A stretch of 64,000 bases of DNA from Bacteroidia bacterium (GCA_044353855.1 JBILBF010000001.1:642233-706232); one strand, 5' to 3'. Shown: positions 6,537 to 27,757, counted from the first letter of the stretch. Numbers and translations are program-made. The notes: generated by a model not told the origin, from the letters alone.

Positions 6537-6541
6537 ACTTG

Positions 6542-6628
6542 CGGAGAGCGAGGGATTCGAACCCTCGATACCTGTTACAGTATACACGCTTTCCAAGCGA
6601 GCTCGTTCGGCCACTCTGACAGCTCTCC
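6542..6628 (-). tRNA. tRNA-Ser (anticodon GGA), type II with long variable arm
   Basis: Reverse complement reads GGAGAGC...TTGGAAA (anticodon loop, GGA)...long variable arm...GGGTTCGAATCCCTCGCTCTCCG; 87 nt; acceptor stem pairs 7/7; CCA not encoded. Confidence 0.85.
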
Positions 6629-7656: not shown

Positions 7657-10600
7657 ATGAGCAATACCACCACCCAAAAAAAGGAACAAAAAGGCCTTCG
7701 TTTCAATCGCTTTTTTACCCAAGATGGAGTAAGTCCATTTGATTTGTATGAATACGATTCGCGTACTTCTGTCATTAAAAATCCCAATGGCGAAAAAGTG
7801 TTCGAACTTACCAATGTAGAAGTTCCCAAATCATGGAGTCAAGTTGCAACAGATGTGTTGGCCCAAAAATATTTTCGTAGAGCAGGTGTCCCATTAGCAG
7901 ATGGAAGTATAGGTGGTGAACATTCGATTAAACAAGTTGCACATCGTATGGCCAATTGTTGGATGTCATGGGGTGAAAAGTATCATTATTTTGATAGCAA
8001 AAAAGATGCTCAAATTTTTTACGATGAAATGGTATACATGATCATCGGTCAGTATGCTGCACCCAATTCACCTCAATGGTTTAATACCGGTTTGCATAGC
8101 TCATATGGCATTACTGGTAAACCACAAGGGCATTATTTTGTGAATCCTAAAACGAATAAATTGGAGCGTTCTACTTCGGCATACGAACGTCCACAACCAC
8201 ATGCTTGTTTTATTTTATCGGTTGATGATGATTTGGTCAATGAAGGCGGTATTATGGATTTGTGGGTTCGCGAGGCACGTATTTTTAAATATGGTTCGGG
8301 TGTAGGCACAAATTATTCAAAGTTGCGCGGAGCTTCCGAAAAACTATCGGGAGGTGGAACATCATCAGGTTTAATGAGTTTCCTAAAAATTGGTGACCGT
8401 GCTGCAGGTGCTATAAAAAGTGGTGGTACAACCAGGCGTGCGGCCAAAATGGTTTGTTTGGATTTAGATCATCCCGAAATTGTAGAATTTATAAATTGGA
8501 AAAAAAACGAAGAGAAAAAAGTAGCTGCATTGATTGCTGCTGGTTATCCAAGCGATTATGAAGGTGAAGCCTATGCAACCGTTGCCGGTCAAAATTCCAA
8601 TAACTCTATTCGTATTCCAAACGAATTTTTTACTGCCTTGGAACAAGACACGGATTGGAATTTAACTGCTCGCAGCAATGGCCAAACAATTAAATCCATC
8701 CCCGCTAAACAATTGTGGGATATGATAGGCGATGCAGCATGGGCTTGTGCCGATCCGGGTGTGCAATATGATACCACCATTAACGAATGGCATACTTGCC
8801 CCGAAGGTGGACGAATCAATGCATCCAACCCTTGTTCGGAATATATGTTTTTGGATAACACAGCTTGTAATTTAGCGTCATTAAACTTAATGCGTTTTTT
8901 TAATGCCGCTACCTGCCAGTATGATGTAAAAGGTATTGAACATGCTTCGCGTTTGTGGACAGTTGTATTGGAAATATCTGTATTAATGGCTCAATTTCCA
9001 TCCAAAGAAGTTGCACAATTATCATACGAATACCGCACCTTAGGGTTGGGTTATGCAAATTTAGGAACGGCATTAATGGTTGCTGGAATACCATACGACT
9101 CCTCAAAAGCATTTGCAATCGGTGGAGCAATTACCGCTATCTTAACTGGAACAGCGTATAAAACTTCGGCAGAAATGGCTAAGTATTTAGGAGCATTTCC
9201 TAAATACAAAGAGAATAAAAAACACATGTTGCGCGTAATGAAAAATCACCGTTATGCTGCCTACAATACTCCCGATTTATATGAAGGTTTAGCTATTCGT
9301 CCCGCAGGTATTGATACTAAAAATTGTCCTGATTATTTGTTAAGTGCAGCATGTACATCATGGGACATGGCCGTGCAAATGGGCGAAAAATATGGCTATC
9401 GCAATGCACAAACAACAGTTATAGCTCCTACAGGTACTATTGGTTTGGTAATGGATTGTGATACAACCGGTATTGAACCAGATTTTGCTTTGGTAAAATT
9501 CAAAAAATTATCGGGAGGGGGTTATTTTAAAATTATTAACCAATCGGTTCCAGCTGCACTAAAAAACTTAGGATATTCCCCATTACAAATAGATGCAATT
9601 ATCAAACATGCAACCGGTCATACTTCGTTAACAGGTGCTCCATTTATCAATCCTGAATCGTTATTATTTAGAGGATTTACTGTAGAAGAAATTGCAAAAT
9701 TAGACAAAGCAGCTGCAGGTGCATTTGAAATTGGTTTTGCCTTTAACCAATGGACAGTAGGTGAAGAATGTTTGCAACGGTTAGGATTCACCGCTGCCGA
9801 ATACAATAGTCCTAAATTTAATTTACTGCGCAAATTGGGTTACACCAAAACAGAAATTGATGCAGCAAATATTTATGTATGTGGAGCAATGACAGTGGAA
9901 GGTGCAGCTGACTTAAAAGACGAACATTTGGCAGTATTTGATTGTGCCAATAAATGTGGAACAACAGGCGAGCGGTATATTGCAGCATCAGGCCATATTC
10001 GTATGATGGCAGCAGCTCAACCGTTTTTAAGTGGTGCTATTTCCAAAACCATTAACCTGCCAAATGAGGCAACTGTGGATGAAATAAAAGAGTGCTACCA
10101 TTTAAGTTGGAGCATGGGCTTAAAAGCAAACGCATTGTACCGGGATGGGTGCAAATTATCGCAACCACTAAGCAATAAAAGTGATGTGGTGGATGATGAA
10201 GACATGCAAGAAGTTGTGGAATCGGTATTGGGCGAATCGGCTCATAAATCATTGGGCGAATTAACTCCTGATCAAGTATTGGAAGCTGCAACGGCTATTT
10301 TAAATAAATCGAGTGATACAGAGTTTAAACGAAAATTAGCGCGCATTGTAGAGCGTAAACAATTACCTGGCAAACGTGCTGGTTTTACCCAAAAAGCAAC
10401 TGTTGGCGGACAAACCATTTTTGTGCGCACAGGTGAATATGAAGATGGAACATTGGGCGAAATATTTGTGGATTTACACAAAGAAGGAGCAACCTTACGT
10501 TCGTTGATGAACTGCTTTTCTATTGCAGTATCATTAGGCTTGCAATACGGAGTTCCATTGGAAGAGTACGTTGATAAATTTACGTTCACCCGTTTTGAAC

Positions 10601-11034
10601 CTGCAGGTATGGTTACTGGGCATGATAATATTAAAAGTGCAACTTCCATAATTGACTATATGTTCCGCATGTTGGGATTTGAATATTTGGGCAGAGAAGA
10701 TTTTATACAAATTGCTCCCAATGAAGTGCAACGTGCAAACCTTGCAATGAATAAACCACATGTAACCATTGCACCCAAAACGATATATCCAGCAGAAGTA
10801 AATCCATTGTTGAATGAAGTTGAAACAACTGCACCCATCGGTTTTATGAAACCACAAACAACAGTGGAAACCATACAAGCCCCGATGGCCGAAATCGTTC
10901 AGCCAGACCAAACACAAGCCTATTTAAAAAGTTTTGGCGATAGCCCATCCTGCCCAAGTTGTGGTAGTTTAACTATTCGCAGTGGCGCATGCTACAAATG
11001 CATGAACTGTGGAACACAAACGGGGTGTTCGTAA
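7657..11034 (+). CDS. nrdJ: adenosylcobalamin-dependent ribonucleoside-diphosphate reductase (class II RNR)
   Basis: 1125 aa; active-site region [21 protein letters not shown]; C-terminal Cys4 zinc ribbon CPSCGS...CYKCMNCG typical of long NrdJ. Confidence 0.9.
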
Positions 11035-13467: not shown

Positions 13468-13507
13468 AAAAAGCCATTCGGACAGAATGGCTTTTGCATT
13501 TAATTTG

Positions 13508-13581
13508 CTCCCTGACCTGGACTCGAACCAGGGACCTAGTGATTAACAGTCACTCGCTCTAACCAGCTGAGCTATCAAGGA
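13508..13581 (-). tRNA. tRNA-Asn (anticodon GUU), intact
   Basis: Reverse complement TCCTTGATAGCTCAGCTGGTTAGAGCGAGTGACTGTTAATCACTAGGTCCCTGGTTCGAGTCCAGGTCAGGGAG: 7-bp acceptor stem, D-arm, anticodon stem AGTGA/TCACT with loop CTGTTAA, T-arm CTGGTTCGAGTCCAG; 74 nt. Confidence 0.9.
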
Positions 13582-17177: not shown

Positions 17178-19217
17178 TTAGCTTTGTAGCGGTAAGCTAA
17201 AAAAGAAAGATGTTCCGTTGTCTTTTTGGCTTTCTGCCCAAATTGTTCCTCCATTTCTTTCTATAAAGTCTTTGCAAAGCATTAATCCGAGGCCAGTTCC
17301 TTTTTCGTTTGCAGTACCTTTGGTGCTCGGGTGTTCATGTTGGTTAAATAATTTGGCTAAATTTTCTGTGCTTATACCTACTCCGTTGTCTTTTATTTCT
17401 ACAATACATTTCTGCTCTGTTATTGATGCCAATAATGAAATTGAACCACTTTCAGGTGTGAACTTTATTGCGTTTGAAATCAAATTTCGCAATACTAAGT
17501 TTATCATATCAATATCGGCAAATGCAGTTATGTTTTCGTCTACAGAATTAACCAGGGAAATGTTTTTTTGATGTGCCGCTGAGTTTAATAAATTGATGTT
17601 TTCTTGTGAGAGTGAATGGATATTTAGTTTTTGACGGTGAATGGTTACTCCTTTGATTTGCGCAGATGCCCATATCAATAAATTTTCTAATAAATCAATC
17701 GTGTTTTCTACAGAACTGGAAATCTGTTTGGTAATCTCTGAAGTATCTATGGGGACATACTCTTTATTACTCACTAAATCAAAATAGAGCTTCATTGTGG
17801 TCAAATTGTTTCGTAAATCATGTGATATGATAGAAAAGAAACGATCCTTGACACTATTCAGTTGATCTAGTTTTTCTTTTTGCTCCATAATCGAAGCGTT
17901 TTTATCAATTAATTCAATCTGCTGCTTTCGCAAGTTTTTGGCTATACGCCTGTTTTGAATTGTAAAAGCTATAAGAAAAATAAATAGGACTCCTAAAACA
18001 ATAGAAGCTATTGTAAATAGATTGGTAACAGCTTTTTCTTTGGTAAGTTCTATTTCATTTATTTGTTGTTCTTTATGCAGCAATTCTATTTGTTGTTGTT
18101 TTTTTTCTGATTCATATACAAGGAGTTGATCTGTTAGTTTTTTCAAACTGCTGTCGTTAAAAATGGAGTCTTTTAACTCTTTGCTTAACGTACTAAAAGT
18201 AGTTGCTTTTTCATTTTCTTGGGTAAGTTTATAAACTATAGCTAAACCTTGATAAGCCTCTTCCAATTCAATTTTTGAATCTATATTTTTGGAGAGTTGA
18301 ATCGCTTTTTGATAAGATTGAATCGCTTTATCATAAAGCCGAATGGAAACAAAAGTTGCACCCATGGCATTGTAGTTAGATACCATAATGGGCAGTGCTT
18401 TAATTTGTTCGCTCATAAACAATGAACGCTTAAAGTAGTTTATAGCTTTTTCAGAATGACCATCAAGTTGTTCAATTGTTCCTAATTGATACAAGGTTGA
18501 TGCAATGCCTGGATTGTTATTAAATTCAGTATATAAGGCTAATGATTTCAAGAAATAAGTTTTTGCTTTTTGAGGTTCCTGTTGTCGCAAGTAACTATTG
18601 CCAATATTGTCGTATCCAACAAGTGCTCTAAATTTATCGGATGATTCTTCGTATAAGCTGATTGCTTTTAAATTGTATTCAATTGATTTGGAGAAATTAT
18701 TTTGACGGGCATAAATGCTTCCAAGAGCGTTAAATACATTAACCATTCCCACTTTGTCTTTTAATTCTTCATAATACCTCAAAGCCTTTAAATAGTTTTC
18801 GGAAGAAAGCGGTAAGTTTCCTTGTGAGAAATAAATACCCGCAAGAGCTGCAGTTACATCTGCAATATTTTTGGTGTTTTTTAAATTTACATAATAACCT
18901 AATGCTTCTGTGTAATGCTCTTTTGCAGTGGTTATGCCCATTCTAAACTCAATTGCAGCAAGTGTTTGTAAAGCTTTAGCATGTGATGCATCATCTTTTA
19001 ATTCGGTTGCATACTGTATAGCTTGGTTTAAATACTGAATGGCAAGCTGTGGATTGTTGTTTCGATTTAGCTGTGCAATAATTTGCAATGCAACTAATTT
19101 ATCTGCGTCAGCTCCAGTACTAATGATTTGTTGTAAACTATCTGAATTGATTTGCTGAGCGAATAGTTGTACACTAAAAATAACTGAAATACATAAATGA
19201 TAAATTACCTTTTTCAA
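17178..19217 (-). CDS. sensor histidine kinase with periplasmic/N-terminal TPR repeats
   Basis: Signal peptide; ~8 TPR-like repeats; TM helix; HisKA (FFSIISHDLRNNL) and HATPase_c (GTGLGLMLCKDFIERNGG) motifs. Confidence 0.8.
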   Translation of the reverse strand: MKKVIYHLCISVIFSVQLFAQQINSDSLQQIISTGADADKLVALQIIAQLNRNNNPQLAIQYLNQAIQYATELKDDASHAKALQTLAAIEFRMGITTAKEHYTEALGYYVNLKNTKNIADVTAALAGIYFSQGNLPLSSENYLKALRYYEELKDKVGMVNVFNALGSIYARQNNFSKSIEYNLKAISLYEESSDKFRALVGYDNIGNSYLRQQEPQKAKTYFLKSLALYTEFNNNPGIASTLYQLGTIEQLDGHSEKAINYFKRSLFMSEQIKALPIMVSNYNAMGATFVSIRLYDKAIQSYQKAIQLSKNIDSKIELEEAYQGLAIVYKLTQENEKATTFSTLSKELKDSIFNDSSLKKLTDQLLVYESEKKQQQIELLHKEQQINEIELTKEKAVTNLFTIASIVLGVLFIFLIAFTIQNRRIAKNLRKQQIELIDKNASIMEQKEKLDQLNSVKDRFFSIISHDLRNNLTTMKLYFDLVSNKEYVPIDTSEITKQISSSVENTIDLLENLLIWASAQIKGVTIHRQKLNIHSLSQENINLLNSAAHQKNISLVNSVDENITAFADIDMINLVLRNLISNAIKFTPESGSISLLASITEQKCIVEIKDNGVGISTENLAKLFNQHEHPSTKGTANEKGTGLGLMLCKDFIERNGGTIWAESQKDNGTSFFFSLPLQS

Positions 19218-19927
19218 CTGGTTACATTTTCTGCTAATTTAAATCCACTTCCATGAATATTCACTATTTCAACTGTAGTATCTTCTTTAAGGAGTTTTCT
19301 TAGCTTATTAATATATACATCTAAATTACGTGCTGTGTAAAAATCATCTCGTCCCCATACACTCAGCAATATTGCATTTCGGCTTATTAAATTGTTTTTG
19401 TTTACAATAAAAAGTTTAAGCAACTCTGCCTCTGTTGTACTAATTCTTTTTTCATTTCCAAACTGTTTAAGGATGTGAAGGGTATAGTCTACTTCGGTAT
19501 ACCCTGCAACTAAAATTTCATCCTTTGAAGCAATTCCTGGTTGTGCGAGTTGTGTTCTTTTAATGATTGCTTTGATTCGTGCAATGAGCTCTTGAGTACT
19601 AAAAGGTTTAGTGATGTATTCATCTCCCCCAATTTCAAACCCTTTTAACTTATCTTCTTCTGCTGAGTTTGCAGTTAAAAAAATAATGGGTACATGTTTA
19701 TTCGTTAGTCTAATTTCTGCAGCAAGTTCAAATCCGTTTTTTTTCGGCATGTTTACATCAAAAATACATAAATCAAAACGCTCTGTTTTAAAAGTTTCAA
19801 GTCCCTCAACACCATCTTTACATAATTTGATTGTAAATCCAGCCAATCGCAAATTCTCTTTTAATAAGATACCTAAACTGCTTTCATCTTCAACAAGTAA
19901 TAAATGAGGGAATACTTCCTTTTGCAT
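19214..19927 (-). CDS. two-component response regulator, OmpR/winged-helix family
   Basis: Receiver domain (LLVEDE...D in CIFDVNMPKKNG...K) plus C-terminal trans_reg_C (VDVYINKLRKLL); 4-bp overlap with the kinase gene. Confidence 0.85.
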   Translation of the reverse strand: MQKEVFPHLLLVEDESSLGILLKENLRLAGFTIKLCKDGVEGLETFKTERFDLCIFDVNMPKKNGFELAAEIRLTNKHVPIIFLTANSAEEDKLKGFEIGGDEYITKPFSTQELIARIKAIIKRTQLAQPGIASKDEILVAGYTEVDYTLHILKQFGNEKRISTTEAELLKLFIVNKNNLISRNAILLSVWGRDDFYTARNLDVYINKLRKLLKEDTTVEIVNIHGSGFKLAENVTS

Positions 19928-20118
19928 AAGCTGATGTTGGTTTTGAACAAATGTATAGCATTCATATTTCTTCTTAAAATATTTATAACAGAAGCTTCTT
20001 AATATATTCTAAATTAATCTTCATTATTTAGTTTCTATTGATATTAAGACGTTGGTTAATGTTTTCTTAAAAATGAAATTATTGAATTTTAGAATCAAAA
20101 TGAACATACTTCACTACA

Positions 20119-20985
20119 TTGCTTAAACTTATGTTATACCAAAATACACTCAAACTTCTTCGAATTCCCTTTTCGATTTTTTTGATGCCTGTTTTTTTAT
20201 TTGCATTAAGCCAAACACAACCTATTAATTGGATGCACGCAAGTTTACTTTTTATCGTGCTACATATCTTTATTTATCCATCAAGCAATGCTTATAATAG
20301 TTATATGGATAAAGATGAAACGAGTATTGGTGGACTCGAATTTCCACCACAAGCCACTAAACAACTTTTTTATGCGAGTATATTAATGGATAGTATAGGG
20401 CTTATTATTACTGCTTATATTAGCCTTCATGCAGTTGTCTGTATTGGACTATATATTTTAGCTTCTCGCTTATATAGTTATCGTGGTATAAGGTTAAAAC
20501 AGTTTCCTGTTGTAGGTTTTTTAACGGTTGTTTTTTTCCAAGGTTTTTTTACTTTTTATTTTTGTCAAACCAATATAGGTATTGGCAATATAAATTGGAT
20601 TGCAGCTATTGCGGCTTCTTTTCTTATTGCAGGAGTGTATCCGCTTACACAAATATACCAACATGTAGCTGATGCAAAAGATGGTGTCCAAACCATTAGT
20701 ATGCTGCTTGGGTATAAAGGTACATTCCTTTTTACAGTTGCCATGTTTACAATTGCCAATGCACTATTGTTTTATTGTTTTGCCATACAACATAATGAAC
20801 ATCATTTTTGGATATTAAGCGGATTGTTGTTTCCTACCATTGTATATTTTTTGTATTGGATGAATATCGTATGGAAAGATGAAACACAAGCAAATTTTAA
20901 AAACACTATGCGAATGAATTTGATAGCCTCAAGTACTATGAATTGCTGTTTTCTAATATTATTATTTCTGAATCTACATACATGA
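20119..20985 (+). CDS. UbiA-family aromatic prenyltransferase (membrane)
   Basis: 8-9 TM helices; Asp-rich motif NAYNSYMDKDETSIGG (NxxxDxxxD); 288 aa. Confidence 0.75.
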   Translation: MLKLMLYQNTLKLLRIPFSIFLMPVFLFALSQTQPINWMHASLLFIVLHIFIYPSSNAYNSYMDKDETSIGGLEFPPQATKQLFYASILMDSIGLIITAYISLHAVVCIGLYILASRLYSYRGIRLKQFPVVGFLTVVFFQGFFTFYFCQTNIGIGNINWIAAIAASFLIAGVYPLTQIYQHVADAKDGVQTISMLLGYKGTFLFTVAMFTIANALLFYCFAIQHNEHHFWILSGLLFPTIVYFLYWMNIVWKDETQANFKNTMRMNLIASSTMNCCFLILLFLNLHT

Positions 20986-22073
20986 GCAAACTTATATCAA
21001 TTGGCACGGCAACGCCCGAATTTGAAATCAACCAAATGGATATACATGCCTTTATGGATGTAATTTATGATGGAACAATAGAAGAAAAACGTAGGCTAAA
21101 ATTATTGTACGAGCGAAGTGGAATAAACAAACGATTTTCTGTAATACCTGATTATGACACTCAATTAAAAGAGCGGACGTTATATGCTCAAACTAAAAAC
21201 TTAGAACCGTTTCCTTCTATAGAATTGCGTATGGCTAAATACCAGCAAAAAGCTGCTCCATTAGCAGTAAATGCTAGCCATCAGGCTTTCCAAAACAGTT
21301 CGTTTTTGCCTCAACAAGTTACACATTTAATTACAGTTTCGTGTACAGGGATGTCGGCACCAGGGTTGGATTTGGAGGTAATGGAGTTATTAAACCTGCC
21401 AAATTATACCGAGCGTACTTCTGTCAATTTTATGGGGTGCTATGCTGCTGTTCATGCACTTAAACAAGCAGATGCTATTTGCAACAGTAGACCAAATGCA
21501 TGTGTGCTTATTGTATGTGTAGAGTTGTGTACACTGCATTTCCAAAAAACCAAAGATTATGATAATTTAACCGCTAATGCTATTTTTGGTGATGGCGCTG
21601 CTGCATGTATTGTGGTTAGTGATGAATTGGATACTCATTCTCAATCTGCTTCTATTCAATCTTTTTATAGCGAAGTACATGCTAGTGGAAAACAAGACAT
21701 GGCATGGCAAGTGTCATCTACTGGTTTTTTGATGACGTTGAGCGCTTATATTCCACAGTTAATTGAAAGCAATATTGACCAGCTTTTACAACATGCATTA
21801 GGTAAATATGGTATTTCCCAAAATGAAATTGCGGGTTGGGCAATTCATCCAGGTGGTCGTAAAATTGTGGAAGTAATAGCATCAAAATTGCAACTAAAAC
21901 AAGATGATGTGAAACACTCTTACCAAGTATTACATGATTATGGTAACATGTCATCACCAACAATTTTATTTGTGTTAAAACAAATGTTAGAAGACAATAC
22001 ACTAAAGGGTAATATTTTTGGTGCAGCATTTGGTCCGGGTTTAACCATGGAAACATTTTTAATTCACAAGTAA
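20982..22073 (+). CDS. type III polyketide synthase (chalcone/stilbene synthase family)
   Basis: Catalytic Cys in NFMGCYAAVHAL, His/Asn regions, C-terminal GAAFGPGLTME; start at internal ATG 20982 gives a 4-bp ATGA overlap with the UbiA gene. Confidence 0.9.
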   Translation: MSKLISIGTATPEFEINQMDIHAFMDVIYDGTIEEKRRLKLLYERSGINKRFSVIPDYDTQLKERTLYAQTKNLEPFPSIELRMAKYQQKAAPLAVNASHQAFQNSSFLPQQVTHLITVSCTGMSAPGLDLEVMELLNLPNYTERTSVNFMGCYAAVHALKQADAICNSRPNACVLIVCVELCTLHFQKTKDYDNLTANAIFGDGAAACIVVSDELDTHSQSASIQSFYSEVHASGKQDMAWQVSSTGFLMTLSAYIPQLIESNIDQLLQHALGKYGISQNEIAGWAIHPGGRKIVEVIASKLQLKQDDVKHSYQVLHDYGNMSSPTILFVLKQMLEDNTLKGNIFGAAFGPGLTMETFLIHK

Positions 22074-22099
22074 TTTATGTTGATTTAGCACCTATTAAT

Positions 22100-22795
22100 A
22101 TGTTTACTAACAGATCAACTCTAACAGAATTATTAGATGCAGATAGTATTCCACAACAAGATTTGTTTCGCAATTTACATGAGTTGGATGTTATCAATAG
22201 ATTACTTGGCGGACATGCTGTTACCCTAAAAGCAATCAAAAGCTTAAATCTAAAACAAGATAAAGTGTACCATGTCTTAGATATTGGAAGTGGAGGAGGT
22301 GACACATTAAAAGCCATTGCAAAGTGGGGTAGAAAAAATGGAATTCAATTAGCGTTAACTGGGGTAGATTTAAAATCGGATTGTATCCAATACGCTCAAT
22401 CTTTTTGTAAAGAGTATCCTGAAATCACATTTATTCAAAGCGACTATCGTCAAATACCCAATTTACAGTTAACATTTGATATTATTATTTCTGCTCTTTT
22501 TTGCCATCATTTATCAGATGATGAAATACAGGATTTATGTTTGTGGGGGAGTAAACATGCTAACAATGCTTTTATTATAAACGATCTTCATAGGCATCCA
22601 CTAGCTTATTATAGTATTGCATGTCTCACCCAAATTTTTTCACATTCATATCTTGTCAAAAATGATGCAAAGTTATCGGTATTGCGTGGGTTTAAAAAAA
22701 GTGACCTAACTAAACTAATTAATTTTTTATCCACTCAAAAAATCACCCTAAAATGGATGTGGGCATTCAGGTGGTTATTGGTAATTCGAAAATGA
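22100..22795 (+). CDS. SAM-dependent methyltransferase
   Basis: Class I MTase motif I VLDIGSGGGDTL; 231 aa. Confidence 0.8.
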   Translation: MFTNRSTLTELLDADSIPQQDLFRNLHELDVINRLLGGHAVTLKAIKSLNLKQDKVYHVLDIGSGGGDTLKAIAKWGRKNGIQLALTGVDLKSDCIQYAQSFCKEYPEITFIQSDYRQIPNLQLTFDIIISALFCHHLSDDEIQDLCLWGSKHANNAFIINDLHRHPLAYYSIACLTQIFSHSYLVKNDAKLSVLRGFKKSDLTKLINFLSTQKITLKWMWAFRWLLVIRK

Positions 22796-23919
22796 GTACT
22801 TCACAACCATACGATGTAGCCATTATTGGTGGCGGACTTGCAGGCTTAACCTTTGCCATTCAAATGCGCAAAGTAGGCTTACATGTTTTACTATGTGAAA
22901 AAGAAACCTATCCTTTTCATAAAGTATGTGGAGAATACATTAGCATGGAAAGTTGGGATTTTTTGGAGCGTTTAGGTGTGCCATTATCCAACATGAATTT
23001 GCCACGTATTACCAACTTAACTATTTCTGCTCCCAATGGCAATACATTATCACACAAGCTTAATTTGGGTGGATTTGGGATTAGCCGCTACACGTTGGAT
23101 TATAAACTCTTTACCATTGCCAAAAAGTTGGGTGTTGATATAAAGGAAGGGTGCACTGTAAATGATGTTCATCATCAGCAATTGCATACCAATGCAGGAA
23201 ATTTTTCGGCAAACATAATTGTGGGTAGCTGGGGCAAACGTTCTAAAATGGATGCAAGTTTGATGCGTAATTTTTTACAACCGCATAATAGGAAGTTAAA
23301 TAATTATGTAGGTGTAAAATACCATATTGAAGCTGATTTACCAGAAAATGTAATTGAGTTACATAATTTTAAAAATGGCTATTGTGGCATTTCCAAAATT
23401 GAAGATAACAAATACTGCATATGCTATTTGGTGAGTGGGCAAGAATTAAAATTAGCACACGGAAATATTCAACAATTACAAGAAAATGTGCTGATGAAAA
23501 ACCCATACCTGCAAAAATATTTTTCACAGTTTCCATCCTTATATGCCAAACCATTAACCATTTCACAAATTAGTTTTGAGCCTAAAACATTAACCGAACA
23601 AGGCATCATTATGGCAGGTGATGCTGCAGGATTAATAACACCACTTTGTGGTAATGGAATGAGTATGGCTATGCATGCATCTTATTTATTAGCACAACAA
23701 CTTATAGCTTATTTTGATGGTAACCAATCGAAAGAAATGCTCATTAAAAATTACAGTAATGATTGGCAACAGCATTTTTCAAGTAGGTTAAAAACTGGAC
23801 GTTTTATTCAATCATTATTTGGTAATCCTTTCCTTACCAATATTGCTATTCCTTTGCTTAAGCCATTCCCATTTGTAATAAATGCTTTGGTAAAAAGCAC
23901 CCATGGCAAACCTTTTTAG
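22792..23919 (+). CDS. FAD-dependent monooxygenase / geranylgeranyl-reductase-family oxidoreductase
   Basis: Dinucleotide-binding YDVAIIGGGLAGL and GD motif GDAAGLITPLCGNGMSMAM; ATGA overlap with the methyltransferase stop. Confidence 0.8.
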   Translation: MSTSQPYDVAIIGGGLAGLTFAIQMRKVGLHVLLCEKETYPFHKVCGEYISMESWDFLERLGVPLSNMNLPRITNLTISAPNGNTLSHKLNLGGFGISRYTLDYKLFTIAKKLGVDIKEGCTVNDVHHQQLHTNAGNFSANIIVGSWGKRSKMDASLMRNFLQPHNRKLNNYVGVKYHIEADLPENVIELHNFKNGYCGISKIEDNKYCICYLVSGQELKLAHGNIQQLQENVLMKNPYLQKYFSQFPSLYAKPLTISQISFEPKTLTEQGIIMAGDAAGLITPLCGNGMSMAMHASYLLAQQLIAYFDGNQSKEMLIKNYSNDWQQHFSSRLKTGRFIQSLFGNPFLTNIAIPLLKPFPFVINALVKSTHGKPF

Positions 23920-23939
23920 TCTATTCGTGTTTTGTATAC

Positions 23940-24626
23940 ATGAAACATTATGTAATAGTTGGAGCCAGCAGTGGCATTGGATTTGAACTTGCCAAACAAT
24001 TGAGCCCTAGTCATAAAATAACAGCATTAGCTCGAACAGAAAAGGAATTAGGCAGCCTTAATAACACTTCTTTTTACAGCTGTGATATTGCTGAAGAAAC
24101 CCCAACGTTTCCGTCAATAGAAATCCCAATTGATGGCTTAATTTATTGTCCGGGTACCATCAATCTAAAGCCTTTTAGAGGGATTAAAAACGAAGATTAC
24201 CTTCACGAGTGGAACATTAATTTTTTAGGTGCGGTAAAAACAATTCGCAACTATTTACCTCAATTACAACAAGGCCAAAATCCAAGTATTGTATTGTTTA
24301 GTACCATTGCTGTTCAACTCGGAATGCCATTTCATGCCAGTATTAGCGCTGCTAAAGGAGCTGTTGAAGGGTTAACCAAAAGTTTAGCAGCTGAGTTTGC
24401 CCCCAAAATTAGGGTAAACGCAATTGCTCCATCGCTTACCAATACACCTTTGGCTGATAAGCTATTGAATAACGAAGCTAAATTATCAGCAGCAGCCGAA
24501 AGGCATCCATTAAAAACAATCGGGCAACCAAATGATATTGCAGACGCTGTTCTTTATGTATTAAACGCAAATTGGGTTACAGGCCAAATTATTCATGTTG
24601 ATGGGGGCATGAGTGCTATTAAATAA
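23940..24626 (+). CDS. short-chain dehydrogenase/reductase (SDR)
   Basis: IVGASSGIGFELA cofactor-binding motif; S...YxxxK (SISAAKGAVEG) catalytic region. Confidence 0.85.
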   Translation: MKHYVIVGASSGIGFELAKQLSPSHKITALARTEKELGSLNNTSFYSCDIAEETPTFPSIEIPIDGLIYCPGTINLKPFRGIKNEDYLHEWNINFLGAVKTIRNYLPQLQQGQNPSIVLFSTIAVQLGMPFHASISAAKGAVEGLTKSLAAEFAPKIRVNAIAPSLTNTPLADKLLNNEAKLSAAAERHPLKTIGQPNDIADAVLYVLNANWVTGQIIHVDGGMSAIK

Positions 24627-25155: not shown

Positions 25156-26319
25156 TTGGTGTTGATGATACTCACACATAAATACGAACCATCAATACTC
25201 ATTGACGAAATGCATTGGCAGCAATGTCGAATGTATGATGAATTGGTTAAAATTTTTGAGTTTATAGACTTACCCGAAAACATAAAAGTTATTGAGCAAC
25301 AAAATAGTGCCATTTTAAGAGCCTACTATGCAAATGCAATAACCCATAATATCATTGATATTAAAACGGTAAAGTATATTGTTAAAGGCAATATAAAACC
25401 TAAAGGCATAAACGAACGTGCAGTTGAACAATTTATAAAAGCAGAACGTTATCTCGATTCAATAGTAAACGAGTCATTAAGTATTTCGATAGTATATCAA
25501 CTTCAAAAAATTCTAATTTTAGATTTATACAACAACCGAGAGGATGTTAATTTATTTTCAGCAAATTCTGTTCGTCCAATAGAAAAGCTTAGTGCAACAG
25601 CTGAGATGGAATTGGAATCATTATTTGAGTTTATAAATACTGATAATGAATTTCACCCTATCAACCAATCTTGGATTTTACATTTTAGGTTATTAAATAC
25701 CCGTTTGTTTTCTGAAGGAACTACAAAAATTGCATCTTTACTTCAATATTTTTGGCTTAAGAAAAAAGGAATGGATGCTTTTGGTATGCTAAGTATAGAG
25801 CATGAGTTATATGTAAACAAAAATGAATATCAAGGTTTTTGGGATGATCAACTCCCGGAATATGTAAACGATATTCAACAACAGTTTAATTTTGGAATGG
25901 AATTGTTTGGCACGCAACTAGATCGAATCAAACAATTATTACGTTCCTATTTTAGAAAACAGGTGGATTTTGAGAAGCTCAACCCCCGTCAAAAAAATAT
26001 CATGAATTATGTTTTTGAGCGTGGATATCGATTAAAAGAAATGGATGATTCCGTTTTAAATAAAAGACAAAAATTAATTATGTATATCATTCAACATAGA
26101 GGATTTATTTCTACTAAAGACTTGGTGAATGAGTTTGAATGTAATCGGAAAACCATACAGCGAGATTTTGTTTCGTTAACCGATAATAATTTGGTAAAAA
26201 TAATTGGAAAAGGTGCAGGTTTACGTTATGCTGTAAACCTAACGGAAAGAAAGTATCAGCATTTAGATAAATACCAATCTCCTTTGGTTGTTGATGATCC
26301 GATTGAAATTGAATTATAA
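25156..26319 (+). CDS. hypothetical protein with tandem C-terminal winged-helix (DeoR-like) DNA-binding domains; possible degenerate Fic-family architecture
   Basis: Two C-terminal wHTH-like segments (RQKNIMNYVFERGYRLKEM; RQKLIMYIIQHRGFISTKDLVNEFECNRKTIQRDF); the central HP...R region lacks the HPFxxGNGR Fic motif. Confidence 0.55.
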   Translation: MVLMILTHKYEPSILIDEMHWQQCRMYDELVKIFEFIDLPENIKVIEQQNSAILRAYYANAITHNIIDIKTVKYIVKGNIKPKGINERAVEQFIKAERYLDSIVNESLSISIVYQLQKILILDLYNNREDVNLFSANSVRPIEKLSATAEMELESLFEFINTDNEFHPINQSWILHFRLLNTRLFSEGTTKIASLLQYFWLKKKGMDAFGMLSIEHELYVNKNEYQGFWDDQLPEYVNDIQQQFNFGMELFGTQLDRIKQLLRSYFRKQVDFEKLNPRQKNIMNYVFERGYRLKEMDDSVLNKRQKLIMYIIQHRGFISTKDLVNEFECNRKTIQRDFVSLTDNNLVKIIGKGAGLRYAVNLTERKYQHLDKYQSPLVVDDPIEIEL

Positions 26320-26662: not shown

Positions 26663-27757
26663 TTATTTGCTTAAATCTATCATTTTCAGCGTTTCAGCTT
26701 TATTTATTTTGCCTGTAGGGGTATAGCTAAAGGAGGGAAAAGTATAATATAACTTTGGAATCTCATGTTTAGCTAGTTTTTGAGCCAACTTCAAAATAAG
26801 TCCTTTTTGTTGCGAGGGATCCCAATTTGTTGATTCAATAAGGGCTATTACTTTTTGTCCGTATAACATATCATCTATCCCGCAAATAAAAACATTGGTT
26901 ATGGTATCTGATAATACAGAACGAATGGCCTCTTCAATTTTGCCAGGAAATATTTTTAACCCACCTGAATTGATTATATCATCGGCTCTTCCCAAAACAA
27001 TAAACGATGTATCATCTATTAGCTCGACTACATCATTTGTTTGCAACCAACTATTATTTGTGGAAACACTTTTAATAGCAAGGCAATGTCGATCATCTGT
27101 TCGAATATTTACACCTTTTAGTAAGGTGAAATAATCCTCTTTGCCAATTTGTTTGAGTGCTATATGGCTAACCGTTTCGGTCATTCCATAAGTATGAAAA
27201 ACTTTGGTGTTCAACTTACCTAAAGCGGCTTCTAGCTTTTTATCAATGGTAGTTCCGCCTATAAGTATCCGACTAAATTTAGTGAGTTTTTGGGTTTCAT
27301 TGGCTTCATTTTTAATTATTGAAAAAACCTGTAATGGAGCAAACGATGCAAAAGTGTATGGGTGATTGATTTGTATGTTTTGTAACGGATTACTACCTGG
27401 TTCTTGTAATGTAATAGTAGCACCTAATATCAAACCGCGTACAAGCAACATTGCCCCCCCAATAAACTGTGTGTTCATGCAAAGTAAAATATGTTCATCA
27501 GCAGTAAGCAATAATGTTTCTATTGTGCTTTTTGCACTCGCTTCTAATTGTTCACGGTATAGTATTGTTTTTTTCGGAATACCTGTTGATCCCGATGTAT
27601 GAAAAACAAATTGTTGTTGGTTATTTAGCCATTGTTGTGCAAGCTTAAACGAAAAGGTATGCATAGCTTCGTCATCACTTAACAGAGCTGCTCCATCATG
27701 CTTTATTGCATTAAATGAATAGCTTTTGTTATTTACGATTATTGAAGACATGTTCAA
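26663..27757 (-). CDS. menE: AMP-binding enzyme, probably O-succinylbenzoate--CoA ligase (short MenE type)
   Basis: AMP-binding motif HTSGSTGIPK, YGMTE, and GRADDIINSGG; the 364-aa length is typical of Bacteroidota MenE. Confidence 0.65.
   Translation of the reverse strand: MNMSSIIVNNKSYSFNAIKHDGAALLSDDEAMHTFSFKLAQQWLNNQQQFVFHTSGSTGIPKKTILYREQLEASAKSTIETLLLTADEHILLCMNTQFIGGAMLLVRGLILGATITLQEPGSNPLQNIQINHPYTFASFAPLQVFSIIKNEANETQKLTKFSRILIGGTTIDKKLEAALGKLNTKVFHTYGMTETVSHIALKQIGKEDYFTLLKGVNIRTDDRHCLAIKSVSTNNSWLQTNDVVELIDDTSFIVLGRADDIINSGGLKIFPGKIEEAIRSVLSDTITNVFICGIDDMLYGQKVIALIESTNWDPSQQKGLILKLAQKLAKHEIPKLYYTFPSFSYTPTGKINKAETLKMIDLSK

Follow-up and report, generated by a model that had tools for sequence, protein, structure and literature searches.

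A conserved type III polyketide synthase operon with a UbiA-family enzyme in Bacteroidota, probably for a tailored phenolic lipid

By analogy, the closest known system to the operon described here appears to be agq of Actinoplanes missouriensis, which an earlier note on this DNA, made from the sequence alone, did not bring in. The agqABCD genes, in work attributed to Awakawa et al. 2011 (ChemBioChem 12:439), reportedly encode a route from an alkylresorcinol, through hydroxylation, methylation, and O-prenylation, to alkyl-O-dihydrogeranyl-methoxyhydroquinones. As cited in PMC10896814, PMC4044012, and PMC7587189, agq combines a type III polyketide synthase (PKS) that makes alkylresorcinols with an oxygenase, a methyltransferase, and a UbiA-like enzyme, bound to the membrane, that O-prenylates a PKS-derived phenol. 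The operon here has these four enzyme classes in common with agq, a likeness of class in which the role of the FAD oxygenase is assumed; agq comes from another phylum, has another gene order, and has no known short-chain dehydrogenase/reductase (SDR). The losA locus of Micromonospora endolithica would also be agq-like: beside the type III PKS LosA, which makes alkylresorcinols, it has UbiA, methyltransferase, and flavoprotein-type genes. The flavoprotein there is annotated as acyl-CoA-dehydrogenase type, whereas the one here has a PHBH/GGR fold.

The same PKS, methyltransferase, and FAD-protein families as here are found in hidABC (hierridin B/C, Cyanobium) and in mtr-fdo-t3pks of Planctomycetota. 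In the planctomycete operon, whose PKS makes alkylresorcinols, each of the three proteins shares 48-55% identity with its cyanobacterial Hid counterpart; the role given to HidB/Fdo is itself presumed and, for planctomycete Fdo, does not come from experiment (PMC10896814), a point against the reading proposed below. Compared with the enzymes here, the PKS is only about 30% identical, and fragments of the methyltransferase and the FAD protein reach only about 25-30%. The order here, PKS, methyltransferase, FAD, agrees with hidC>hidA>hidB, one of two known hid orders. However, hid clusters normally carry no prenyltransferase (there is one cyanobacterial exception), while UbiA is integral to the cassette here.

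The srsABC genes of Streptomyces griseus and pkqABC of Mycobacterium smegmatis likewise run in the order PKS, methyltransferase, flavoprotein, and follow an alkylresorcinol-to-quinone logic, but have no UbiA gene. SrsB-type methyltransferases are membrane proteins resembling ICMT/PEMT, unlike the soluble methyltransferase here. In plants, cannabinoids, hop bitter acids, and daurichromenic acid arise when a type III PKS product, an alkylresorcylic acid or an acylphloroglucinol, is prenylated by a membrane enzyme of the UbiA superfamily; those pathways are eukaryotic, unclustered or loosely clustered, and use other PKS and prenyltransferase clades. In our view, the logic of the operon is that of agq, built with tailoring enzymes of the hierridin type. 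Pathways of this kind are known in actinomycetes and cyanobacteria, and the operon here is a variant of them that is so far uncharacterised.

Operon layout and conservation

The window, that is, the whole stretch of DNA that was analysed, is 64,000 nucleotides long and comes from a Bacteroidia bacterium. The features of the locus are as follows.

17178..19217, minus strand: histidine kinase; Pfam domains are TPR repeats, HisKA, and HATPase_c
19214..19927, minus strand: OmpR-type response regulator, Response_reg and Trans_reg_C (Pfam)
19928..20130, no strand: divergent intergenic region, presumed promoter site
20131..20985, plus strand: UbiA-superfamily integral membrane prenyltransferase (predicted), 284 aa; its ORF opens at TTG 20119
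20982..22073, plus strand: type III polyketide synthase, 363 aa, Chal_sti_synt_N and _C
22100..22795, plus strand: class I SAM-dependent methyltransferase, 231 aa, PRK06202-like, Methyltransf_25/31/11
22792..23919, plus strand: FAD-binding flavoprotein, 375 aa; alternative start ATG 22753
23940..24626, plus strand: SDR, 228 aa, adh_short_C2 (E 4e-37)

The five co-directional genes reported earlier at 20119-24626 were found as plus-strand ORFs in exactly those places, and Pfam agrees with their labels (UbiA, Chal_sti_synt_N/_C, Methyltransf_25, FAD_binding_3, adh_short_C2). The same note had counted three consecutive ATGA junctions; there are just two, at 20982 (UbiA/PKS) and 22792 (methyltransferase/FAD), and they are not consecutive. 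The PKS/methyltransferase and FAD/SDR junctions are gaps of 26 and 20 nt. The overlap at 22792 is contingent on the choice of FAD start, which in public gene calls is ATG 22753. For UbiA, ATG 20131 is the likelier start: it gives the same length, 284 aa, as P0241, the closest homologue (95% identical), and invariant residues lie upstream of the later Met codons. Tight co-directional packing, the two overlaps, and retention of the partners in relatives all bear out the reading as one operon-like unit. Its GC content (0.335-0.341) is that of the flanks.

A genome scan with the PKS gave at least 600 stretches, with 598 confirmed PKS relatives, and the 80 best-matching species-representative genomes among them were taken for synteny. 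UbiA, PKS, methyltransferase, and FAD genes lay on the same strand and in the same order at 75 of these 80 best loci, or 75 of the 78 informative ones (Bacteroidota), an arrangement far above chance. Of the five others, two are cut at contig ends, two have no methyltransferase gene, and one has UbiA inverted and no FAD gene. UbiA itself is in the same place at 77 of the 80. The four-gene cassette is conserved across soil and freshwater Bacteroidota, so that the conservation of partners, on which the earlier note had let its reading depend, is found for these four genes. It is not found for the SDR, which that note had included in the cluster; present at only two of the 80 loci (L001 and L002, the nearest relatives), it is a lineage-specific add-on outside the conserved core. 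In Chitinophagaceae, the cassette lies among housekeeping genes in conserved synteny.

Polyketide synthase and prenyltransferase

The PKS matches Pfam Chal_sti_synt_N and _C at 95.9 and 97.1 bits (cut-off 27). Its top PDB matches are 7cb3, 4b0n, PKS18, and Steely1 (146-162 bits), and every one of the 60 listed is a type III PKS. Among NCBIfam models, DpgA scores 173 bits versus 75 for FabH. Grouping with KAS III, raised earlier as the alternative, is thus not what these matches give; the enzyme is CHS-like. Of the core proposed before, the CHS-like PKS, the SAM methyltransferase, and a flavoprotein stand, while "FAD monooxygenase" names a role that is unproven.

Cys153 (NFMGC), His289 (WAIHPGG), and Asn322 (YGNMSS) align with the triad of PKS18 and Steely1; the triad is invariant in an alignment of 18 sequences, and over 81 homologues its conservation is at least 90%. 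Trp242, also at least 90% conserved among homologues, aligns to a Trp in Steely1, whereas the pyrone synthase PKS18 has Leu. Experimentally verified alkylresorcinol synthases of planctomycetes carry this Trp too, as read by eye, and the PKS here shares its ELCTLHF motif with them and with Steely1. In Azotobacter, Trp281 is critical and is conserved in alkylresorcinol-type enzymes (PMC9927152). We infer that Trp242 is equivalent to ArsB Trp281, which would favour aldol over lactone closure. Some homologues carry the JGI name "alkylresorcinol/alkylpyrone synthase." Identity to verified alkylresorcinol synthases is about 30% and other type III PKSs are equally near, which speaks against the phenolic-lipid reading. 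From its residues and motifs, the PKS is probably resorcinol-forming.

The UbiA protein scores 49.9 bits against Pfam PF01040 (cut-off 34.2). Its AlphaFold model (pLDDT 93.2) is all-helical, and Foldseek places it at TM 0.72 to 4tq3, the A. fulgidus UbiA homologue, and 0.70-0.71 to 4od4/4od5. The first conserved motif, N60-S-Y-M-D64-x-D66 (N-x3-D-x-D), is non-canonical compared with NDxxDxxxD, and the second, Y180-Q-H-x-x-D185-x-x-D188, has two Asp only, the canonical form being DxxxD; this shortage of Asp is a point against prenylation. Conservation extends to the basic residues R125 and K127. Taken together, the modelled fold and the diphosphate-binding residues appear to be conserved, in favour of prenyl transfer.

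In hhalign, the UbiA profile matched E. coli MenA (probability 82%, E 1e-5) and gave no match to E. coli UbiA. Identity as MenA was rejected at 19.8 bits for the NCBIfam MenA equivalog (cut-off 555). At E<=1e-3, the protein recovered 713 cluster representatives among 1.84 billion; the clade appears to be small, well separated, and nearer MenA than UbiA. JGI names for homologues of the tailoring enzymes include "DHNA octaprenyltransferase" and "menaquinone-9 beta-reductase."

A natural UbiA-PKS fusion occurs in Dyadobacter sp. 32 (WP_149244224.1), with methyltransferase and FAD genes downstream; the fusion has six members of 652 aa, from separate assemblies. Distant members of the clade (35-41% identity) belong to other operons, where their partners are a type III PKS, a methyltransferase that scores above the NCBIfam UbiG equivalog cut-off, and a small His-rich membrane protein. 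Counting these sister operons, the clade is paired with type III PKSs in two further gene arrangements. The fusion speaks for a functional link between UbiA and the PKS, as do the distant operons with a UbiG-like methyltransferase; two high-GC clade members that adjoin no PKS count against it.

Tailoring enzymes

The methyltransferase matches NCBIfam PRK06202 (E 1.2e-43) at 149 bits, under the cut-off of 243, followed by UbiG and UbiE. Pfam gave no ICMT or PEMT domain; it is a soluble Rossmann-fold protein of the Methyltransf_25/11 type. The HMM of its family aligned in collinear fashion, over the full length, to G. maris mtr, an error-containing sequence from a scanned supplement; the matches (E 2.5e-10 and 3e-7) spread across two of its reading frames. 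The FAD family HMM matched G. maris fdo at E 5.7e-6, with weaker collinear pieces. Because the methyltransferase is a class I Rossmann protein collinear with Mtr, the tailoring pair is best described as hierridin-like: the methyltransferase groups by type with HidA and planctomycete Mtr, and the FAD protein is of the HidB/Fdo type.

The FAD protein has a PHBH/GGR/halogenase fold and falls below every curated family cut-off, the best NCBIfam model being the geranylgeranyl-reductase TIGR02032 (99.3 bits versus 158.8). Fold searches did not separate halogenase, hydroxylase, and reductase; the closest fold is that of halogenases. W147-G148 stands in place of the usual DG motif. A GGYGWxFP-type motif is typical of geranylgeranyl reductases, and the segment at that place reads NGYCGISK. 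There is also a conserved KVCGE, which we take to resemble the GGR Cys motif. Elsewhere in Bacteroidota, homologues of 56% identity adjoin sdhB and dapB, far from any PKS gene, which counts against the phenolic-lipid reading. The protein is most likely a ring hydroxylase, with a prenyl reductase as the less likely alternative.

The SDR has Ile in place of the canonical catalytic Tyr (FHASISAAK) in the window, in L001, and in L002, and its closest PDB relative, 3un1, likewise has no such Tyr. With the Ser-Tyr-Lys set incomplete, assignment as a classical SDR was set aside.

Proposed pathway, competing readings, and regulation

On sequence and precedent, we consider it fairly probable that the genes are co-transcribed as an operon and serve to make a polyketide phenol that is tailored and associated with the membrane. 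The product is most likely a methylated, oxidised, and prenylated phenolic lipid. The type III PKS would condense an acyl-CoA or acyl-ACP starter, most likely fatty acyl, with malonyl-CoA, and aldol closure would give an alkylresorcinol or a resorcylic acid. The class I SAM methyltransferase might then methylate the ring, on O or C, and the FAD flavoprotein would most likely hydroxylate it to the hydroquinone/quinone level or, alternatively, saturate a prenyl double bond. One can envision the UbiA-family membrane enzyme using a prenyl diphosphate to place an isoprenoid chain on the phenol, on O or C. The atypical SDR may add a redox step in this lineage only. We infer all these steps, with the substrate, product, step order, and regulation, from homology and precedent. 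The earlier likening to phenolic lipids of the Srs/Ars type holds in that an alkylresorcinol-derived lipid is the best reading, and its suggestion of additional prenylation holds too, but the methyltransferase and FAD protein match the hierridin/planctomycete type, not Srs.

The main competitor, which we regard as rather unlikely, is an isoprenoid quinol or quinone: the PKS would use a short starter to form a small aromatic ring, a long polyprenyl tail would be added by the MenA-like enzyme, and the methyltransferase and FAD protein would finish a redox carrier or antioxidant. We hold it just as doubtful that the product is a membrane electron carrier or antioxidant and not a secreted secondary metabolite. 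Such a route draws on the fact that the nearest named relatives of every tailoring enzyme belong to quinone biosynthesis: MenA for the UbiA profile together with the JGI names, UbiG/UbiE as next best for the methyltransferase, and the UbiG cut-off passed in sister operons. The housekeeping synteny in Chitinophagaceae, a base composition equal to the flanks, and the acceptance of polyketide quinones as electron carriers in actinobacteria are also in its favour. However, all of these matches are to broad superfamilies and, in the window, lie below curated cut-offs; the organism has a menE-like gene, implying ordinary menaquinone synthesis; no polyprenyl diphosphate synthase is linked; and the PKS motifs resemble those of long-chain alkylresorcinol synthases. 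That the cassette and the sister operons, with UbiA clade, PKS, UbiG-like methyltransferase, and His-rich protein, together form an unrecognised isoprenoid quinol route is a tentative idea that we likewise think rather unlikely. If true, a type III PKS, and not chorismate, would be the source of the aromatic head group of a quinol, and many aerobic Bacteroidota would have a second membrane redox lipid or antioxidant beside menaquinone.

It is improbable that the pathway is plainly of the hierridin/Srs type, its product an alkylresorcinol or alkylquinone that is methylated and hydroxylated but not prenylated, with UbiA acting on another substrate or being a mere neighbour. The hid gene order, the match of both tailoring families to planctomycete hid-like enzymes, the degenerate Asp-rich motifs of UbiA, and the clade members without a PKS all fit such a pathway, but the UbiA/PKS overlap, the constancy of UbiA at 77 of the 80 loci, the Dyadobacter fusion, and the UbiA/PKS pairing in two other architectures do not. 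Very improbable is a halogenated phenolic polyketide, comparable to DIF-1 or chlorinated hierridin C, with the FAD protein as a flavin-dependent halogenase on the resorcinol ring; the nearest folds are halogenases, the WxWxIP halogenase motif was not found in the protein, and its conserved Ile73 presumably occupies the CndH Lys76 position (manual alignment, approximate). A KAS III (FabH-type) condensing enzyme beside unrelated neighbours, or a chance cluster, could appeal to secondary Pfam matches to ACP_syn_III domains. These are weak (33-37 bits versus 96-97 for the CHS domains), the FabH models score far under their cut-offs (TIGR00747, 66 bits versus 292; PRK09352, 75 versus 249), and the gene order is kept in 75 genomes; family scores and synteny thus refute this explanation.

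Returning to the preferred phenolic-lipid reading, expression is probably controlled by the two-component system, whose pair of genes overlaps by 4 nt and is transcribed divergently from the operon. Among the best 80 loci, the pair takes this position only in L001 and L002; a kinase homologue is also so placed in metagenomic contigs of the same organism. In the intergenic region, a sigma-70-like match at 20067-20095 was weak and no better than chance, and 19928..20130 held no match to a Bacteroidota-type -33/-7 promoter. By alignment, the block TAATGTTTTCTTAAAAAT (about 20057-20074) in this region is common to L001 and partly to L002.

Layout and conservation of the operon

The operon occupies 20119-24626 of the window and consists of five co-directional genes, as the earlier note had read from the sequence alone.

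20119-20985, + strand: UbiA-family prenyltransferase (UbiA); likelier start, ATG at 20131
20982-22073, + strand: type III polyketide synthase (PKS)
22100-22795, + strand: SAM methyltransferase (MT)
22792-23919, + strand: FAD protein; alternative start at 22753
23940-24626, + strand: SDR

That description stands save for one detail: of the three consecutive ATGA junctions reported, we count two, UbiA/PKS and MT/FAD, which are not adjacent. Gaps of 26 nt and 20 nt separate PKS from MT and FAD from SDR. GC content is about 34% across the whole window, and the operon is like its flanks in composition. The predicted UbiA protein most likely starts at ATG 20131 and has 284 aa, since a 95%-identical homologue (P0241) also has 284 aa and since R11, F14, and S15, which are invariant (284-aa numbering), come before the later Met codons that one public gene call takes as the start. 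For the FAD gene, there are two candidate starts, 22753 and 22792.

A genome scan with one genome per species returned at least 600 matching stretches, 598 of those 600 confirmed as PKS relatives, and the ORFs of the best 80 of these loci were searched with the window's proteins. All 80 are from Bacteroidota, chiefly Chitinophagaceae, with Sphingobacteriales, Cytophagales, and one Lewinellaceae metagenome-assembled genome also represented. UbiA, PKS, MT, and FAD genes lie on one strand, in the window's order, in 75 of the 80; two of the remaining five are cut by contig ends, two have no MT, and one has an inverted UbiA and no FAD gene. In the MT-less variants among L014, L040, and L046, the PKS gene is followed directly by FAD; in the UbiA-inverted variant, no FAD gene lies nearby. 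No acyl-AMP ligase, acyl carrier protein, polyprenyl synthase, or transporter gene is conserved across the 80 best loci. In Chitinophagaceae, the flanks are housekeeping genes with synteny at the family level, and the cassette looks vertically inherited.

Conservation of the operon's partners in relatives thus holds for the first four genes and fails for the last. Of the best 80 loci, just those of the two closest relatives (PKS identity 66% and 58%) have the SDR gene, the two-component pair, and the Fic/HTH gene around the cassette, and therefore the conserved unit is four genes, the SDR being a lineage-specific addition. The SDR is itself atypical; in its FHASISAAK motif, Ile replaces the catalytic Tyr, both in the window and in the two relatives (L001 and L002), and the closest solved relative, 3un1, likewise has no Tyr.

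Two genes upstream run divergently from the operon and encode a response regulator of OmpR type and a histidine kinase that contains TPR repeats. Downstream, at 25156-26319, a 387-aa protein has DeoR/HTH_11 as its C-terminal domain and matches Fic weakly; of the best 80 of at least 600 loci, only those of the two closest relatives have it. Ahead of the UbiA start, the block TAATGTTTTCTTAAAAAT (about 20057-20074) is conserved in L001 and partly in L002 and could be a promoter element or regulator-binding site. Promoter and terminator scans gave matches no more numerous than chance, with none to the Bacteroidota -33/-7 promoter upstream of the operon.

The polyketide synthase and the UbiA-family protein

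The earlier note had allowed that the synthase might prove to be a KAS III enzyme. Family scores rule this out: both CHS domains score 96 to 97 bits, FabH models fall well under their cut-offs, and the enzyme is a CHS-like type III PKS. The 60 PDB matches listed consist of type III PKSs only; at the top stand 7cb3, the Ectocarpus enzyme 4b0n, Mycobacterium tuberculosis PKS18, and Dictyostelium Steely1. There is no THN synthase among these 60, which disfavors a THN/RppA type, and a DpgA type was rejected because the score, 173 bits, falls short of the cut-off, 425. When the enzyme is aligned with PKS18 and Steely1, its catalytic residues prove to be Cys153, His289, and Asn322, all kept in the homologues; Cys121, also considered as the nucleophile, aligns with CHS Thr132.

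Two active-site features point to the kind of ring that may be formed. The segment ELCTLHF resembles EVCSLHF of Steely1 and ELCSLH- of the planctomycete enzymes. At the position of Trp242, PKS18, a pyrone synthase, has Leu, whereas Steely1 and the planctomycete alkylresorcinol synthases have Trp. The planctomycete enzymes yielded C15 and C17 alkylresorcinols in Corynebacterium (PMC10896814), and Trp at Azotobacter position 281 is conserved among alkylresorcinol-type enzymes (PMC9927152). We infer that Trp242 is its equivalent, from the alignment with PKS18 and Steely1. With the verified planctomycete synthases, the PKS shares only about 30% identity overall; it therefore forms its own clade, and resorcinol formation, as predicted from these motifs, is a probability rather than a finding.

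The prenyltransferase is assigned to the UbiA family by Pfam, and its structure model (pLDDT 93) superposes on archaeal UbiA homologues with a TM score of 0.72. Its conserved residues (N60, D64, D66, R125, K127, Y180, D185, and D188 in 288-aa numbering) would be enough for a diphosphate/Mg site, with fewer Asp than in the canonical motifs. A phmmer search of 1.84 billion cluster representatives returned 713 proteins at E<=1e-3 and 209 at E<=1e-30; judged by sequence similarity, the clade is small and isolated. Its profile aligns with Escherichia coli MenA (probability 82%, 220 columns) and gives no alignment with E. coli UbiA; the window's protein fails the MenA equivalog model widely.

The case for a link between prenyltransferase and PKS goes beyond the overlap of their genes, a pairing that is conserved across the best 80 loci. 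P0363 (L091, 6001-7959), a homologue of 652 aa, is a natural UbiA-PKS fusion, after which come MT and FAD genes. It corresponds to WP_149244224.1 of Dyadobacter sp. 32, and since there are six 652-aa members from separate assemblies, the fusion is not an assembly artefact. Distant members of the UbiA clade (35 to 41% identity) occur in other operons, again with a type III PKS.

L089 and L090: PKS, 170-aa protein, MT, UbiA with an extra C-terminal domain
L093: PKS, 148-aa protein, MT, UbiA, then an NnrU/DUF1295/ICMT-like membrane protein
L092: PKS, then immediately a UbiA extended at its N terminus

Among these distant members, four of six informative contexts are PKS-linked (one too-short contig was left out). 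We rejected the view that the clade is exclusively PKS-linked, given two high-GC members that stand alone. In clade members of about 500 aa (P0420 at L089, 6001-7500; P0434; P0493), the C terminus has an additional domain of about 210 aa that matches nothing in Pfam.

At 150 and 135 bits, the MTs of these sister operons exceed the cut-off of the NCBIfam UbiG equivalog (103 bits). Between PKS and the UbiG-like MT, in operons that have no FAD gene, is a His-rich membrane protein of 148 to 170 aa (L089, 4758-5270; L093, 1767-2213) with the motifs DEFxFHR, GHPxDT, KDExIH, and LHP; it matches nothing in Pfam or NCBIfam. The two copies compared directly are 40.7% identical (E 1e-32), and by eye the N-terminal extension of the UbiA in L092 (P0464, 870-2168) looks like a further homologue, here fused to UbiA. 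One can speculate that it is a membrane hydroxylase in place of the flavoprotein.

The tailoring pair: methyltransferase and FAD protein

The MT belongs to the soluble class I enzymes; in NCBIfam it matches PRK06202 best (E 1e-43, below cut-off), and UbiG and UbiE come next. The Srs methyltransferase of the Streptomyces griseus alkylquinone pathway is ICMT-like; no ICMT or PEMT domain was matched in the window's operon proteins. We built profile HMMs from the window's proteins together with their homologues, 79 sequences for MT and 74 for FAD. They were collinear with mtr and fdo of the planctomycete Gimesia maris, as weak matches spread over three frames of DNA taken from the scanned supplement of PMC10896814, in which scanning frameshifts split matches over reading frames. 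With tblastn, this error-containing DNA of experimentally studied tailoring enzymes gave fragments only. All three proteins of the planctomycete operon are 48 to 55% identical to their counterparts in the cyanobacterial hierridin (Hid) cluster (PMC10896814). Together, the collinearity and this similarity point to an MT-FAD pair of hierridin type, not Srs type. In this respect the earlier interpretation needs revision: its prenylated polyketide operon is supported, and its Srs-type tailoring is not.

For the FAD protein, we lean slightly toward a ring hydroxylase by analogy with HidB, although the hydroxylase role of HidB is itself only a proposal. The chief alternative is reduction of a prenyl or alkenyl group. 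The protein has GxGxxG and GDAAG motifs, and its best family is the geranylgeranyl-reductase superfamily, at 99 bits (cut-off 159); UbiH-type hydroxylases score around 40. A conserved KVCGE resembles the reductase Cys motif; the reductase segment GGYGWxFP is absent, and WG stands where class A monooxygenases have their DG motif. A halogenase role, raised by fold matches, was set aside, as WxWxIP is absent; an approximate manual alignment finds no halogenase catalytic Lys.

Homologues of the FAD protein with 56% identity (L081, 5065-6198; L083, 7001-8131) lie between sdhA/sdhB plus CHU_C and dapB/lepB in Bacteroidota, with no PKS nearby. One record of this type is labelled Methylacidiphilales; its gene neighbors look like those of Bacteroidota.

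Precedents, product, and neighboring genes

To our knowledge, work on bacterial UbiA-family enzymes dedicated to polyketide phenols is so far limited to the one from the Actinoplanes missouriensis agq cluster. By enzyme class, this cluster is the closest precedent. Its products are named in the title of Awakawa et al. (2011), as given in citing sources, as alkyl-O-dihydrogeranyl-methoxyhydroquinones. The window's operon repeats the agq logic as described (PKS, oxygenase, MT, and UbiA-like prenyltransferase) but differs in phylum, in gene order, in its hierridin-type MT and FAD protein, and in its extra atypical SDR; it is best described as an agq-like pathway from hid-like parts. In Micromonospora endolithica, the gene for the alkylresorcinol synthase LosA adjoins genes for a methyltransferase, a prenyltransferase of the UbiA family, and a protein of acyl-CoA-dehydrogenase type. 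Few kinds of biosynthetic cluster are predicted in Bacteroidota as often as the type III PKS kind, which accounts for about 11% of clusters in Flavobacteriaceae in one survey (PMC10734526). Standard cluster-mining tools would flag this cassette, which is common in genomes. No characterized Bacteroidota cassette or type III PKS cluster turned up in the literature searched; zobelliphol is cited as a dialkylresorcinol in passages that tie no type III PKS to it.

The earlier interpretation is partly supported and can be narrowed to a probable pathway to a prenylated, methylated, and probably hydroxylated resorcinolic lipid, as predicted from the four core genes. At least 598 matching stretches and apparent vertical inheritance argue that the product is probably a membrane lipid of physiological relevance, not an antibiotic of sporadic occurrence. 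Could it be a polyketide-headed isoprenoid quinol with a redox role in the membrane? All the tailoring enzymes have affinities to quinone pathways and the inheritance is housekeeping-like, both of which favor such a molecule, but the alkylresorcinol-like PKS motifs and the absence of polyprenyl synthase linkage count against it, and we consider it unlikely. Knowledge of the product would give a function to at least several hundred genes. It would also test whether bacteria commonly have UbiA-family enzymes devoted to polyketide phenols, and show whether cassette-bearing bacteria carry a polyketide-derived quinol. The Dyadobacter fusion offers a handle on product transfer from a soluble PKS to a membrane prenyltransferase.

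Elsewhere in the window, 2 kb downstream of the operon on the opposite strand and outside the conserved cassette, a 364-aa AMP-binding protein is encoded at 26663-27757 (- strand). It matches models of o-succinylbenzoate-CoA ligase (MenE) best, in each case below cut-off (TIGR01923, 146 bits; cut-off, 330), which suggests ordinary menaquinone synthesis in this organism. Genes for tRNA-Ser(GGA) and tRNA-Asn(GUU) lie at 6541-6628 and 13507-13581 (- strand). A ribonucleotide reductase has been called on public contigs of this organism, and the 1125-aa ORF at 7657-11034, with Ribonuc_red_2_N, Ribonuc_red_lgC, and TSCPD domains, probably encodes it.
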